Notes under the pieces: model-generated
Seen by the model: only the letters and a program-made list of their open reading frames with translations
Database searches by the model: none
What the model was told of the DNA's origin: nothing
Translations under genes and position numbers: made by a program
Part shown: positions 1 through 19,520 of the stretch, piece after piece
Layout of the letters: each line of letters opens with the position of its first letter
Position numbering within the stretch: the first letter of the stretch is position 1
Assembly (NCBI GenBank): GCA_045545315.1
Contig: JAZQAR010000023.1
Location: 1 to 59,692, forward strand
Direction of reading: 5' to 3'
Length of the DNA: 59,692 nt
Source: Eubacteriales bacterium
GTDB lineage: Bacteria; Bacillota; Clostridia; Oscillospirales; QAKW01

Positions 1-741
1 CAGGGTCTTGCCGGTCAGAGCGGGGATCGTAATACCCGTAGGAGTAGGCGGATTGGGATCCGGATCGGGTGTGGGCGTAGGTGTGGGGGTGGGCTTGGGC
101 TTATTGGCTTCCCGGTATGTATCGAACCGATGGAAGATGGCCGCTAATTGAGCACGGGTCGCCTTACCCTTGGGCTCCAGATAAGAAACGTTGCCCTTCA
201 GGTTGCCGTTGACCAGGCCGGCGGTATTTGCCCACAGCATAGCCTCCCGAGCATAGGAAGAGATCTTCCCCTGATCGGGAAAGGCGCCCAGGGAACCGGA
301 AAGAGAAACGTTATATTTCAACATATTTTGGGTATAGCGGTACAAGATCGTCGCCAGCTGCTCCCGGGTGATCTTGGCAGAGGGGCCGAAGGTGGTGGCG
401 GAGGTACCGTTGACGATCCCGTTTTGGTAGGCCCACAACACCGCCTTTTTATACCAGGCCTGCTTCAGATCGGTAAAGGGCGTGCTGCCGCTGACCGCAG
501 GTTCCCCGGCGGAGCGATACAGAATCGTCACCAGCATGGCCCGTTCGGCGGAGCCTTCGGGGGAGAATTTCCCCTCGCCGGTGCCGTTCATCAGCCCTTG
601 AGCGGTGGCCCATTCAATATCAGCTTTGGCCCAATGCTTTTTGGAAACGTCCCGGTATTCCGCCGCAAAGGCCACGGTCACGTTGCCCAGCAATAGCAAT
701 ACCACAAGTGCGATGGAGATGAATCTTTTTGTCAACTTCAT
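1..741 (-). CDS. SLH-domain cell-surface protein, N-terminal part only (the gene runs off the left window edge); paralog of 9785..13612 and 14310..19520
   Basis: Absent from the ORF track because it is open at the window edge. Translation from the ATG (complement of 739..741) gives MKLTKRFISIALVVLLLLGNVTVAFAAEYRDVSKKHWAKADIEWATAQGLMNGTGEGKFSPEGSAERAML... This is a signal peptide, three SLH repeats, a Pro/Thr linker and the start of a PASTA-like unit (GITIPALTGKTL). The order matches the N-termini of the two SLH paralogs. The + ORF 148..696 is its antisense shadow. Confidence 0.85.
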   Translation of the reverse strand, partial: MKLTKRFISIALVVLLLLGNVTVAFAAEYRDVSKKHWAKADIEWATAQGLMNGTGEGKFSPEGSAERAMLVTILYRSAGEPAVSGSTPFTDLKQAWYKKAVLWAYQNGIVNGTSATTFGPSAKITREQLATILYRYTQNMLKYNVSLSGSLGAFPDQGKISSYAREAMLWANTAGLVNGNLKGNVSYLEPKGKATRAQLAAIFHRFDTYREANKPKPTPTPTPTPDPDPNPPTPTGITIPALTGKTL

Positions 742-789
742 CCTGTTACCCCTTTTGAACGACCCGTCGGGTCGTTTATTTTATATTTT

Positions 790-17300: not shown

Positions 17301-19520
17301 GATGGTCTTGGCCTCTGCCACGGTCTTACCGTAGAGATCGGGCACCCGATAGATCACCTTGACGGTGAGGGTAACGGTCTTACCGGCCTCTACCACACAG
17401 CCTGCGGCAGGTTTTTGTTCCATCACGATACCGTCGTTCCCTTCGCTGGAGCCTTCGGCCAGGGCAACGGCAAAGCCGGCGGCCTCCAAAGCGCTCTTGG
17501 CTTCGGCCTTGGACATCCCGCTCACATCGGGCACTTCCTTCTGCTGGGAGGGGAGCAAGGGGGTAATGGACGGATCCTCCTTCAGCCAGATATCCGCATA
17601 GATCAGGTTATGGTCGCTGATATCGGTGCGGTTCACGGTCAGGCCGTTGGGCTGGGTCTGGGTGGAGCGATAACCGATGTTATCGGAAAGAATGATGTTA
17701 TCAATGGGGATATAGGAGGCATTACCCTGGGGGTAGGTATCGGTGGTAACGGTCAAGGTCTTACTGCCGTTCAACGGAGTATAGCGCTCCGTATCTACCA
17801 CGTTACGGAAGTCCAGGGGTGCAATATTCGTATCGCCCACCAGGATGGGATAGGTATCCCGATCCATCATAGCCATGATCTCGGCCATCTGCTTGGGCTG
17901 GCTTTTCACGATATTATTATTGTTCTCATCTTCGCCGCAATAGGCCAGATGGGTGTTATAGAAGACCAGGGTCTTGCCGTTATCCACACTGTCGTTGGTC
18001 AGATCCACGCAGATCTCGTGGCGTTCCACCGTCCGTTCCTCTCCGGTCTGGTCGTTGAACTTAATAGTCTCGCTCTTGGTAATGGGATATTTGCTCAGGA
18101 TACCGTGACCGTAGCCACCACCCTGCAGATCGATGGATTTTCCGAAGTAATAATAGGGATAACCGGTAGCGGCGGCGATCTTATCCATCTGGTGATCGCC
18201 GTTCACACGGGTGGTCCCGTCATCGATCTCCTGCAGACCGATGATCGCCGGGTCAATGGCATTGATCTCCTCGGCAAAGACCTCGTAATTCACGCCGCTG
18301 CCATGGGCAAAGTGGCGCACGTTATAGGAAGCCACCCGGAAGATCAGGGAGGCATCCGGTTCGGGCTCCACGTAGGGAGGCTCCACGTTCAGGCTCAGGG
18401 TGATGGTCACCCCGGCAGGGCGCTGTTGCCCGGCGGCGGGGTTCTGGTCGATCACGGTATCCGGCTCCTTGGTTTCGTCGTAGGTACCGTCGATAAACAC
18501 CACCTGGAACTGCCCGGCGGCAGCCGCTGCGGCGGCCACGGCCTCCTCCTCGGTCATACCGGAGAAATCGGGCACGGTATAGAGGGTGGGTGCCACGTTC
18601 AGGTAAACCACCACGGCGGTGCCCGGAGCCACCTGGCTTTGGGCGGCGGTCAGCTGACGCAATACCACCTGATCCCCGTAGGCAGGGTTGTAAACGGATT
18701 CGTTATTAAAGACCAGTTGACCCCCGGCGGCTGGGGGGGCAGCCGTGGCCTCCGCCTTGGTCTTGCCCACAAAGTCGGGCACGGTGGCATAGGTGGGCTC
18801 GGGATCGGGTGTTGGAGTGGGAGTAGGTGTCGGAGTGGGCGTAGGAGTAGGAGCGGGTTCGGGATCCGGATCGGCGGGCTTATTGGCCTCCTGATAGGTA
18901 TCGAACCGATGGAAGATGGCCGCCAGCTGGGCCCGGGTGGCGTTGCCCTTGGGCTCCAGGTAAGAAACCCCGCCCTTCAGGTTACCGTTGACCAGCCCCA
19001 CGGCATTGGCCCAAAGCATAGCATCCCGAGCATAAGAAGAGATCTTGCCCTGGTCGGGGAAGGCACTCAAGGAGCCGGAGACGGAAACATTGTACTTCAG
19101 CATATTTTGGGTATAGCGGTACAAAATTGTCGCCAGCTGTTCCCGGGTGATCTTGGCAGAAGGACCGAAGGTGGTGGCCGAGGTGCCGTTGACGATTCCG
19201 TTTTGGTAAGCCCACAGCACCGCCTTTTTATACCAGGCCTGCTTCAGGTCGGTAAAGGGCGTGTCGCCGCTGACCGCCGGTTCCCCAGCGGAGCGGTACA
19301 AAATAGTCACCAGCATCGCCCGCTCAGCGGAGCCTTCGGGCGAGAATTTACCCGCGCCGGTACCGTTCATCAGCCCTTGGGCGGTGGCCCATTCGATATC
19401 GGCCTTAGCCCAATGCTTTTTGGAAACGTCCTGGTATTCCGCCGCATAGGCAACGGTCACGCTGCTGAACAGCAGCACCAGAACCATCAGAAATGATAAG
19501 ATTCTTTTGGTAATTTTCAT
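14310..19520 (-). CDS. SLH-anchored surface protein with PASTA units and four EEP-like domains (intact, degenerate, degenerate, intact)
   Basis: ORF track, 1736 aa.

Domain order:
- MKITKRILSFLMVLVLLFSSVTVAYA signal peptide;
- SLH repeats, about 18905..19442;
- PTPTPTPTPTP linker, then PASTA units.

EEP domains, approximate positions:
- 17590..18370, intact (SYNV, LQEID, NTHL, GDTN, SDHN);
- 16230..16980, degenerate (SYDV, FQAVD, YNVMF, GNLN, CWHR);
- 15290..16010, degenerate (SYDI, IQGYD, GNLS, NQHR);
- 14313..15050, intact (SYNV, IQEI, NTHL, GDLN, IDHI, SDHN). Confidence 0.9.
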   Translation of the reverse strand: MKITKRILSFLMVLVLLFSSVTVAYAAEYQDVSKKHWAKADIEWATAQGLMNGTGAGKFSPEGSAERAMLVTILYRSAGEPAVSGDTPFTDLKQAWYKKAVLWAYQNGIVNGTSATTFGPSAKITREQLATILYRYTQNMLKYNVSVSGSLSAFPDQGKISSYARDAMLWANAVGLVNGNLKGGVSYLEPKGNATRAQLAAIFHRFDTYQEANKPADPDPEPAPTPTPTPTPTPTPTPDPEPTYATVPDFVGKTKAEATAAPPAAGGQLVFNNESVYNPAYGDQVVLRQLTAAQSQVAPGTAVVVYLNVAPTLYTVPDFSGMTEEEAVAAAAAAAGQFQVVFIDGTYDETKEPDTVIDQNPAAGQQRPAGVTITLSLNVEPPYVEPEPDASLIFRVASYNVRHFAHGSGVNYEVFAEEINAIDPAIIGLQEIDDGTTRVNGDHQMDKIAAATGYPYYYFGKSIDLQGGGYGHGILSKYPITKSETIKFNDQTGEERTVERHEICVDLTNDSVDNGKTLVFYNTHLAYCGEDENNNNIVKSQPKQMAEIMAMMDRDTYPILVGDTNIAPLDFRNVVDTERYTPLNGSKTLTVTTDTYPQGNASYIPIDNIILSDNIGYRSTQTQPNGLTVNRTDISDHNLIYADIWLKEDPSITPLLPSQQKEVPDVSGMSKAEAKSALEAAGFAVALAEGSSEGNDGIVMEQKPAAGCVVEAGKTVTLTVKVIYRVPDLYGKTVAEAKTILAGIGLATAFAEGSLTEDAATVTAQNPAAGTEVEKGSAVTLTAKQVTLVPNVIGQTPAAAKAALEGKGFKVAFTKGSDTESADAKVTLQTPAAGTEYTSGETVTLTGRVLYPEYLTVASYDVKRFNLEASTGKVDYDPFVEEISALNPDIIGFQAVDEGTTSNGYQTKIIAEKLGYSHYAYAPAITSHNGGSFGNSILSRFPILESSGGLFETQDGETRGYVRAVIDVQGVPVTVYNVMFTNGKESARNAQLKQMTDLMAKDEFPILMGNLNMHPSNLSGKIDLNAYTPLNGGKGLDQVYATLTSKTQTTYVSNIIITDQLAPVTDTDHPTGFHVSEELNCWHRMVYTYVRMKNAQPTENEPGAPKVPDLTGLTVAEARARAEAAGFVFALAQGADESANATVSVQTPAAYGVADTGTTITVNTRVLYGDYITVASYDIQKNQNYATLAATIKKADPDIISIQGYDHGTTNITVDCQLEELKKELGADYEYILCGDAHSYKGGYLSNGILSKYPITKSEHGRFTDQTTETRGWNRAEINVGGTTIAVYNVKLAHGKGAALDELREKQLSEILAKMDQDEFPVLMGNLSADATMLEGVLDMGRYTPLNGGKSLENICYTAFNGEEKTASSNIILSDEFEYMTDETAAPYGLYLCPDATNQHRLIYAYIRLKDSVLPENAKFIDVPDFTGMTQLAATATAAANGLTPTFRVGFDQNYIEKVSAQSTPAGTRQPRGKSIELTIGLKLADPADYPGYLTVASYNVQRAAGGSEYEEIAAEIKAVGADVVGIQEIVEGNESSSYKSQIKALADEAGFEYYAFGKSISLNSNEDYGHGIISKYPITKSETFKFATQNGEERSYERHEIYIDTTDDDQENGYTIAFYNTHLCLDSTKASQNAQLAEILAKMDAETIPAVLVGDLNAEPIHLKDTIDASTCTSLNGGKDPNVNAITCHNGKPIDHIILTDDWDHFEYDNGLGIMVIESEWSDHNMLYTYIKLKS

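Follow-up and report, generated by a model that had tools for sequence, protein, structure and literature searches.

Giant PASTA-EEP proteins of an uncultured gut Clostridia bacterium with conserved intact and degenerate phosphodiesterase-fold domains

Contig JAZQAR010000023.1 of an uncultured gut Clostridia bacterium (assembly GCA_045545315.1) carries, within a block of ~20 kb, four genes for giant proteins (A to D, all on the minus strand), in which domains of the EEP (DNase I/exonuclease III) fold are combined with PASTA units in a single chain. Half of the ten EEP domains mapped retain a full catalytic set, whereas the other half are degenerate, yet conserved in orthologues of other species. 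Judged from their sequences, A to D are paralogues encoding giant Sec-exported proteins that are probably displayed on the cell surface, and we hold with moderate confidence to a model of wall-tethered, multi-headed phosphodiesterases with live and dead EEP domains on a PASTA stalk. A surface-anchored modular phosphodiesterase is already known in kind; noteworthy here are the rare PASTA-EEP fusion, the conserved pseudo-enzyme modules, and the expansion of this EEP subfamily. Coordinates refer to the window, i.e., the whole stretch of 59,692 nucleotides that was analysed:

<1..741, minus strand: gene A, truncated to its 5′ part (247 aa); the 3′ part lies beyond the window
899..9610, minus strand: gene B, 2903 aa, identical to database protein P0142
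9785..13612, minus strand: gene C, 1275 aa, the same as database protein P0001
14310..19520, minus strand: gene D, 1736 aa, with orthologues L001, L002 (= P0002) and P0003

The coordinates and lengths of all four genes were given correctly in a first-pass annotation of this DNA, and its assignment of signal peptides to all four products is likewise borne out: read by eye, the N-termini resemble classical Sec signal peptides, with a K/R-rich start, a hydrophobic core and a terminal AxA site. The domains were mapped with hidden Markov models (HMMs) built from the window's own EEP and PASTA sequences. The maps place ten EEP domains in the three complete proteins (four in B, two in C, and four in D), as the first-pass annotation had counted, together with twenty complete PASTA units of ~65 aa each (five in B, eight in C, and seven in D) and the start of one in A. 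The alternation of PASTA and EEP that had been described is only approximate, since PASTA units occur in runs of one to seven, and domains B2 and B3 are joined without any PASTA unit between them.

Eight catalytic or metal-binding positions were scored in each EEP domain: the Asn of SYN, the Glu of QE, the His of NxH, the Asp and Asn of GDxN, the Asp of IDH, and the Asp-His of SDH. All eight are present in five of the ten domains (B2, B4, C2, D1, and D4). In the other five, B1, B3, D2, and D3 retain one or two, and C1 retains five:

3551..4285, minus strand: EEP domain B1, degenerate, one of eight catalytic residues; same pattern in orthologue L006 152-398
2582..3346, minus strand: EEP domain B2, intact (N, E, H, D, N, D, D, H)
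1841..2572, minus strand: EEP domain B3, degenerate, two of eight; directly joined to B2
902..1636, minus strand: EEP domain B4, intact; closest paralogue C2
10733..11476, minus strand: EEP domain C1, partly degenerate, five of eight (Asn to Val, His to Ser, Asp to His)
9788..10528, minus strand: EEP domain C2, intact; modelled with the preceding PASTA unit
17571..18350, minus strand: EEP domain D1, intact
16233..16967, minus strand: EEP domain D2, degenerate
15282..16016, minus strand: EEP domain D3, degenerate
14313..15050, minus strand: EEP domain D4, intact

The motifs that the first-pass annotation had ascribed to the EEP domains in general (SYN, QEVD, NTH, GDxN, IDH, and SDHN) are thus found in the five intact domains but not in the other five. 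By treating all domains alike as "heads", it had not separated the half that are catalytically dead yet conserved. Along the chain, the order is dead-live-dead-live in B, dead-live in C, live-dead-dead-live in D, and dead-live-dead-dead-live in the presumed orthologue of A. The C-terminal, outermost EEP domain is therefore live in every protein, the A orthologue included.

Relatives were sought by a scan of one genome per GTDB species, and were seen only in metagenome-assembled genomes (MAGs) of uncultured Eubacteriales/Clostridia, a number of which bear names that refer to gut samples of ruminants (goat, deer). All four genes have an orthologue in one MAG, JAZOXD01: that of D is L001 (80-88% identity per domain), that of C is L004, and that of B is L006 1-3870. 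Directly downstream of the B orthologue, JAZOXD01 encodes a 2245-aa SLH protein with nine or more PASTA units and five EEP domains. Because of this position, which reproduces the gene order of the window, and because of its similarity, this protein (P0143 / L006 3971-10705, 2241-2245 aa, with SLH, nine PASTA units and five EEP domains interspersed with further PASTA) is taken as the orthologue of A, and it is the likely full-length counterpart of the truncated gene. A second MAG, CAYLIT01, contains the D orthologue P0002, and a third contains P0003, which NCBI labels only as "PASTA domain-containing protein".

The degenerate signatures recur in these orthologues from two or three other MAG species. 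That of D2 (D-A-M-N-N-S-x-H) is the same in the window, in L001, in L002, and twice in P0003; that of D3 (D-G/A-K-N-S-S/A-x-H) is kept in L001 and L002; that of C1 (V-E-S-D-N-D-N-H-H) is identical in the window and in L004; and the patterns of B1 and B3 equal those of their counterparts in L006. The ratio of nonsynonymous to synonymous substitution rates (dN/dS, Nei-Gojobori) between orthologues is 0.13-0.28 for degenerate and 0.12-0.28 for intact domains, which argues that the dead domains are under the same purifying selection as the live ones. The degenerate EEP domains are thus conserved pseudo-enzyme modules, not decaying ones. In a neighbour-joining tree, they fall into at least two or three groups (B1 and B3 with the A-type dead domains, D2 with D3, and C1 beside the live D1), suggesting that catalysis was lost more than once, although long branches make this tree uncertain. 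Intact and degenerate EEP domains are also mixed in multi-EEP proteins without PASTA (P0146, P0236, P0244, and P0249), while every single-domain EEP relative examined is catalytically intact. In several other giants (P0155, P0180, P0203, P0204, and P0255), five to seven repeats align with no more than the N-terminal half of the EEP profile, and they are devoid of the catalytic residues.

The assignment to known families is clear from Pfam. PASTA (PF03793, gathering cut-off 23.2 bits) was matched in B (E = 1.8e-54, 182 bits), C (E = 4.6e-80, 264 bits) and D (E = 1.9e-72, 239.5 bits), as was Exo_endo_phos (PF03372, cut-off 24.5 bits) with E = 1.2e-47 (162.8 bits) in B, E = 2.4e-29 (103.1 bits) in C, and E = 1.7e-44 (152.5 bits) in D. 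SLH was matched in C (E = 1e-24, 86.7 bits) and D (E = 4e-27, 94.5 bits), and an SLH triplet was recognised in the gene A product with our own HMM and by its sequence. By these matches, the window proteins can be counted as members of the EEP and PASTA families and, B excepted, of the SLH family. The S-layer-type anchor proposed in the first-pass annotation accordingly stands for A, C, and D, each of which has an SLH triplet, but not for B, in which neither Pfam nor our own HMM detected SLH and which has no LPXTG motif either. Among the families that had been suggested for a profile check, PASTA, Exo_endo_phos, SLH (only in C and D) and Big_2 (in B) were recovered from the full proteins; GLUG and CW_binding_1, suggested for B, were not, even at E <= 1. 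Pfam matched no Pkinase or Transpeptidase domain and no OB-type family in these proteins, and the PASTA-EEP proteins of the window have no transmembrane helix besides the signal peptide. An LPXTG sortase signal is absent: the C-termini read ...VKPRT, ...VKPRA, and ...IKLKS, without a hydrophobic tail.

Both folds, predicted in the first-pass annotation, were recovered not only by profile but also in structural models. For one PASTA+EEP module (C residues 965-1275), AlphaFold2 gave a model with a mean local confidence (pLDDT) of 93.8 and a predicted template-modelling score (pTM) of 0.88. A Foldseek search with the C2 model gave 170 PDB matches at E <= 0.001, of which the best 50 are all EEP-fold enzymes (probability 1.00), with template-modelling scores of up to 0.75 relative to the target; in the model, C2 thus adopts the four-layer alpha/beta sandwich of the EEP fold. 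The best structural matches, at 13-18% identity, are 4ruw (an uncharacterised actinobacterial EEP protein), TDP2, uncharacterised EEP proteins of Bacteroides and Leptotrichia, neutral sphingomyelinase, and nocturnin. The PASTA part (residues 1-61 of the model, pLDDT 81-97) comprises a helix (10-19) and strands at 23-29, 38-42, and 55-61, and is accordingly modelled as the PASTA fold, one helix packed on a three-stranded sheet. In a two-domain model of B2-B3, both halves are EEP-type sandwiches and the degenerate B3 retains the EEP order of secondary-structure elements, but pTM is only 0.54 and no fixed interface is confidently predicted, so that a rigid live/dead pair is unsupported.

How rare the combination of PASTA and EEP is was judged by an exhaustive HMMER search with a profile of the PASTA+EEP module against 1.84 billion cluster representatives, which gave 37,212 matches, of which the best 150 were inspected; a word-indexed search with an EEP-only profile, which returned 21 small single-domain proteins and missed known multi-domain ones, was not used for this purpose. 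Seven of these best 150 contain both PASTA and EEP, and all seven are from one small Eubacteriales clade: they comprise the window proteins with their orthologues, plus two shortened versions of 621 aa (SLH-PASTA-PASTA-EEP) and 524 aa (SLH-PASTA-EEP). A further 86 are PASTA-only and 53 EEP-only proteins. A full-length search with C was dominated by SLH proteins and returned the same architecture only in P0002 and P0003. Literature searches for PASTA+EEP or SLH+EEP proteins found nothing relevant. The earlier statement that no characterised protein has PASTA units spacing several phosphodiesterase-fold domains therefore holds, as the fusion is rare and no paper on it was found. The accompanying view of PASTA as a feature of penicillin-binding proteins (PBPs) and PknB-type kinases does not: arrays of 13-32 PASTA units without a kinase or PBP domain are frequent in giant metagenomic proteins. 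A kinase was present in only one of 20 long-PASTA proteins sampled, and the others carried laminin-G (lectin), Ig, beta-helix or propeller domains. Proteins with several EEP domains but no PASTA are found as well, e.g., P0146 with four such domains. Searches of sequence databases thus indicate a fusion that is rare and uncharacterised, although its two ingredients are each not unusual.

The single-domain relatives place the EEP subfamily in a wider context. Most have a lipoprotein signal followed by a long acidic linker, or a dockerin-like segment; that one enzyme family is tethered by several means favours a role of all its members as extracellular enzymes bound to the surface. Their genes form tandem arrays of three to five in other Eubacteriales MAGs, with all copies intact (L015 3078-7502, L012 978-6603, and L008 113-4432). 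In these three species, a conserved pair of genes for an ECF-type S-component and a P-loop kinase of the uridine-kinase family lies directly upstream of the array, which hints at salvage of a nucleoside-like product. In the genomes scanned, the EEP subfamily thus appears expanded in a clade of uncultured gut Clostridia, both as fused giants and as tandem single-gene arrays.

In the model that we favour, A, C, and D would be held to the wall by their N-terminal SLH triplet, with the PASTA chains serving as stalk and spacers; B has a different N-terminal part. EEP domains with the residue set found here are Mg2+-dependent phosphoester hydrolases. The live domains, including the outermost ones, would presumably hydrolyse a phosphodiester bond of an extracellular substrate in a Mg2+-dependent manner, and the dead domains most likely hold or present the substrate, or act as a scaffold, for a neighbouring live domain. 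The most likely substrate would be extracellular nucleic acid, scavenged in the gut for phosphate and nucleosides. SLH triplets bind a secondary cell-wall polymer that is pyruvylated and display proteins on the wall (PMC6081394). The cell-surface, multi-headed nuclease or phosphodiesterase of the first-pass annotation thus remains the most reasonable reading, with the amendment that half of the EEP heads are dead.

Granted this model, nucleic acid is the substrate that we place first, with a confidence somewhat below even, ahead of wall or teichoic polymers, lipid head groups and small nucleotide-type compounds (each an unlikely candidate) and of a mainly structural role, which is less likely still. 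The leaning toward nucleic acid derives from the NCBIfam matches, from TDP2 among the top structures, and from the ECF/uridine-kinase-like pair upstream of the related arrays. In NCBIfam, the EEP domains match exodeoxyribonuclease III and the membrane nuclease MnuA best; the matches to exodeoxyribonuclease III (TIGR00633, xth) score 71.8, 39.5, and 42.9 bits, below the cut-off of 99.05.

Several observations weigh against this reading. All NCBIfam matches of the EEP domains fall below the curated cut-offs, and there is no characterised close relative. The best PDB sequence match is not a nuclease, but the sphingomyelinase of B. cereus (2ddr, E = 5.4e-10, with partial coverage), and the top structural match, 4ruw, has no known function. 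All EEP domains are acidic (pI 4.5-5.5), and no OB-fold or other recognised nucleic-acid-binding domain is present. As all of them are acidic, charge is also uninformative as a clue to DNA binding. Within the window, nothing ties the genes to nucleoside or phosphate uptake. The lack of a confident B2-B3 interface leaves cooperation between live and dead domains without structural support, and the surface location, like the signal peptides, was judged by eye alone.

Among the alternatives, the one that survives best, though improbable, is a phosphodiesterase acting on the cell envelope: PASTA would sit on peptidoglycan and SLH on the wall polymer, and the live EEP domains would cut teichoic-acid-type or other wall-linked polymers, either of the cell's own wall during remodelling or of neighbouring bacteria. 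Wall polymers had indeed been listed as a substrate in the first-pass annotation, SLH anchoring puts the proteins in the wall, and the PASTA units are similar to the extracellular, peptidoglycan-sensing region of the kinases Stk1/PknB (NCBIfam NF033483, with E as low as 1.8e-63 in the PASTA region). However, the presence of 13-32-unit PASTA arrays in many giants with unrelated cargo fits a generic stalk, the single-domain relatives use lipoprotein or dockerin tethers without PASTA, and we know of no EEP enzyme that cleaves teichoic acid or wall-polymer linkages.

Slightly less probable again are two alternatives between which we see no difference in likelihood. The proteins could be enzymes of the sphingomyelinase or phospholipase C type, which take phosphorylated head groups off sphingolipids and phospholipids of host, dietary or Bacteroides origin. 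By sequence, the PDB entries that match best are B. cereus sphingomyelinase (2ddr, E = 5.4e-10) and S. aureus beta-hemolysin; in the alignment, the window's EEP domains and the sphingomyelinase group have the catalytic His of N-x-H in common, and human neutral sphingomyelinase occurs at rank 31 of the structural matches. Yet the sequence match spans only positions 3-193 of the 245 in the profile, Foldseek places uncharacterised EEP proteins and TDP2 above any sphingomyelinase, with no bacterial one in the top 50, and a long stalk fixed to the cell's own wall puts an enzyme in a poor position for reaching a membrane. Alternatively, small phosphodiester or pyrophosphate compounds (nucleotides, dinucleotide cofactors, and nucleotide-sugars) could be stripped of phosphate parts, and the remainder imported and re-phosphorylated. 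This salvage is what the position of related EEP arrays directly downstream of an ECF-type S-component and a nucleoside/uridine-kinase-family kinase (in L015, L012, and L008) would suggest, but the EEP domains of the arrays are only 30-38% identical to those of the window, no such transporter-kinase pair adjoins the window genes, and a multi-headed giant with dead binding modules suits polymers better than small substrates. Finally, A to D might be mainly structural or adhesive surface-layer proteins, whose EEP domains, live or dead, are binding modules with incidental catalysis, as the size and repetitiveness of the proteins, the N-terminus that B has in common with cohesin/dockerin scaffold-type proteins, and the conservation of non-catalytic domains (half of the total) might indicate; this is very unlikely, because five domains, their orthologues and every single-domain relative examined keep all eight residues, as expected under selection for catalysis.

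A more far-reaching version of the favoured phosphodiesterase model is possible, but on balance doubtful: the dead EEP domains could represent a new class of substrate-binding modules derived from an enzyme fold, which together with the live domains on the PASTA stalk would form a multivalent surface machine for capturing and degrading a phosphodiester polymer, be it extracellular DNA/RNA or the wall polymers of another cell. If true, this would be the phosphodiesterase counterpart of the logic of cellulases, which combine carbohydrate-binding modules (CBMs) with catalytic domains, and the live/dead pairing in the unrelated P0146, P0236, P0244, and P0249 would make it a general design rule.

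Functionally, the closest known systems are the streptococcal wall-anchored EEP nucleases and the SLH-anchored modular enzymes of Clostridia. SpnA of S. pyogenes is a wall-anchored nuclease with a C-terminal, Mg2+-dependent EEP domain preceded by non-catalytic substrate-binding modules (PMC13601614), and SWAN of S. sanguinis is another streptococcal wall-anchored EEP nuclease (PMC4118848). As secreted, wall-attached proteins that end in a C-terminal EEP domain, they provide a functional precedent for the window proteins. However, SpnA is attached by an LPXTG sortase anchor and combines a single catalytic domain with OB-fold binding domains, whereas the window proteins and the A orthologue have two to five EEP domains, half of them dead, PASTA spacers and an SLH anchor, without OB fold or LPXTG. 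PDB searches revealed no specific sequence similarity to the SpnA type, of which the window proteins, on their domain content, are not members. Among SLH-anchored enzymes of Clostridia and Bacilli, the glycoside hydrolases Cel5I and Xyn10B are reported to bear SLH domains (PMC4976890, PMC6556019). Such enzymes resemble the window proteins in having a signal peptide, an SLH triplet, and a long modular body that holds catalytic domains off the wall; in the window proteins, however, the cargo is EEP, the spacers are PASTA instead of Ig or CBM, and the non-catalytic modules appear to be derived from the enzyme fold itself.

Two further groups share single ingredients. The PASTA kinases (PknB/Stk1/PrkC) and class B PBPs (PBP2x, SpoVD) have extracellular tandem PASTA units of 60-70 aa, and the Stk1 model gave the match mentioned above (E = 1.8e-63). 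This match is limited to the PASTA region (143-215 bits against a cut-off of 450), and the window proteins differ in lacking a kinase or transpeptidase domain, in having up to eight or nine PASTA units, and in their fusion to EEP. B. cereus sphingomyelinase, S. aureus beta-hemolysin, and the uncharacterised EEP proteins of structures 4ruw, 3mpr, 3g6s, and 3teb have the same fold and catalytic residue set, but are single-domain secreted or periplasmic proteins with 13-18% identity in structural alignments.

Nucleases and phosphodiesterases anchored to the cell surface shape how biofilm matrix is turned over, the scavenging of nutrients, and the interaction with the host; those studied so far are, to our knowledge, single-headed. 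The proteins described here would represent a rare design in uncultured gut Clostridia, with several heads per protein, PASTA as stalk, and dead, enzyme-derived domains kept by selection. If these dead domains are binding modules, they constitute a new type of substrate-binding module and a concrete case for the origin of pseudo-enzymes inside multi-domain proteins. Moreover, the wide use of long PASTA arrays as extracellular stalks beyond kinases and PBPs bears on the usual account of PASTA function. Practical value is limited pending a substrate.

Of all EEP domains in the window, B4 and C2 come closest to each other (60% identity), in line with the close match noticed in the first-pass annotation. 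Their duplication is not recent, as had been deduced there: in the neighbour-joining tree, either domain is joined to its orthologue from a different species (L006 for B4, L004 for C2) before the two meet, and the synonymous divergence (dS) to these orthologues is about 0.9-1.5. The SLH anchors of A, C, and D (97-663, 12968-13534, and 18876-19442, minus strand) are 85-86% identical as proteins, and their DNA is about 60-98% (mostly 80-95%) identical per 60-nt block. By comparison, identity is only 78% between the A anchor and that of P0143, the presumed orthologue, and 24-60% between the paralogues in their PASTA/EEP cargo. This pattern suggests gene conversion or concerted evolution of the SLH anchor within the genome.

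The remaining features of the four genes are as follows:

<1..741, minus strand: A in the window; signal peptide, three SLH repeats (about 97-663), Pro/Thr linker, and start of the first PASTA unit
899..9610, minus strand: B overall; signal peptide, ~1045 aa unmatched, Big_2, ~5.5 repeats of ~66 aa, five PASTA, and four EEP
6476..9610, minus strand: B, N-terminal region (residues 1-1045), fold class not recognised
6242..6475, minus strand: B, Big_2 Ig-like domain (residues 1046-1123), Pfam E = 3.2e-15
4886..5968, minus strand: B, Tyr/Phe/Gly-rich tandem repeats, ~5.5 copies of ~66 aa (residues 1215-1575), YFYRNG..AYQL..YYFIND.HRLAKN..LY..GYY.FD.EGKM
4295..4879, minus strand: B, PASTA units 1-3 (residues 1578-1772), own HMM
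3359..3535, minus strand: B, PASTA unit 4, own HMM
1646..1831, minus strand: B, PASTA unit 5, own HMM
9785..13612, minus strand: C overall; signal peptide, three SLH (12968-13534), Pro/Thr linker, seven PASTA (11486-12892), C1, one PASTA (10535-10720), and C2
14310..19520, minus strand: D overall; signal peptide, three SLH (18876-19442), linker, two PASTA (18384-18785), D1, three PASTA (16974-17537), D2, one PASTA (16023-16205), D3, one PASTA (15078-15257), and D4

Residues 1-1045 of B matched no Pfam model and no PDB sequence. Homologues of this part occur in proteins of 1600-2200 aa with cohesin, dockerin, metallophosphoesterase or heparinase II/III-like domains, and its presence in several large proteins points to a shared module of large surface proteins. 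The Tyr/Phe/Gly-rich repeats of B have neither a Pfam profile nor a PDB sequence match; their motif resembles cell-wall/glucan-binding hairpin repeats.

Transcription signals were located around all four genes:

790..819, minus strand: promoter-like site of gene A, TTGACA, 18-nt spacer, TATAAT (12/12, extended -10 TG)
862..891, minus strand: terminator-like hairpin after gene B, 12-bp stem with nine GC pairs, followed by a T run
9670..9697, minus strand: promoter-like site of gene B, TGGACA, 16-nt spacer, TATAAT (11/12)
13665..13694, minus strand: promoter-like site of gene C (12/12, extended -10 TG)
13955-13977 and 14125-14151: terminator-like hairpins upstream of gene C
19550..19578, minus strand: promoter-like site of gene D (12/12)
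19584-19616: terminator-like hairpin closing the upstream aminosugar cluster, with the gene D promoter-like site immediately downstream

Of the sigma-70-type matches in the 20 kb, the best four lie one upstream of each gene, 40-60 nt from its start codon. With a consensus promoter for each gene and hairpin terminators between genes, an operon of A to D was rejected; the four genes are predicted to be separate transcription units, and a "system" in the operon sense, as the first-pass annotation might be understood, is not shown.

Upstream of D, a cluster of five minus-strand genes (19900-24875) encodes a PIG-L/BshB-like deacetylase, a NagB-like protein, a PfkB-family kinase, a GFO/IolG-like dehydrogenase and a DegT-type aminotransferase, and a divergent AraC-family regulator lies beside this aminosugar cluster at 24932-25873. 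In two other MAGs, an AraC regulator likewise adjoins the D orthologue, but next to a different, oxidoreductase-rich operon. A functional link between D and the aminosugar cluster was set aside, given the terminator and separate promoter between them and the other neighbours of the orthologues.

Elsewhere in the window, a 1937-aa RHS-repeat protein (16 RHS repeats and DUF6531) is encoded at 43458-49271 on the minus strand. Beside it, the stretch 40000-44000 is low in GC (0.40-0.41, compared to about 0.53 elsewhere) and contains three open reading frames (ORFs) without a Pfam match; conceivably, the region is a polymorphic-toxin locus that includes immunity or orphan modules. At 25933-27758 on the plus strand (GC 0.44), an ORF for an IS200-like Y1 transposase (249 aa) is immediately followed by a 358-aa ORF without a Pfam or NCBIfam match. 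A single 744-aa ORF at 50652-52886 (minus strand) joins an AraC-type part (ligand-binding and helix-turn-helix) to an M20-family peptidase part; this is an unusual fusion, unless two genes have been read as a single one. A complete peptide ABC transporter of the Opp/Dpp type (family-5 binding protein, two ATPases, and two permeases) adjoins an M20 peptidase gene at 33938-39802 on the minus strand, an ordinary chromosomal context.

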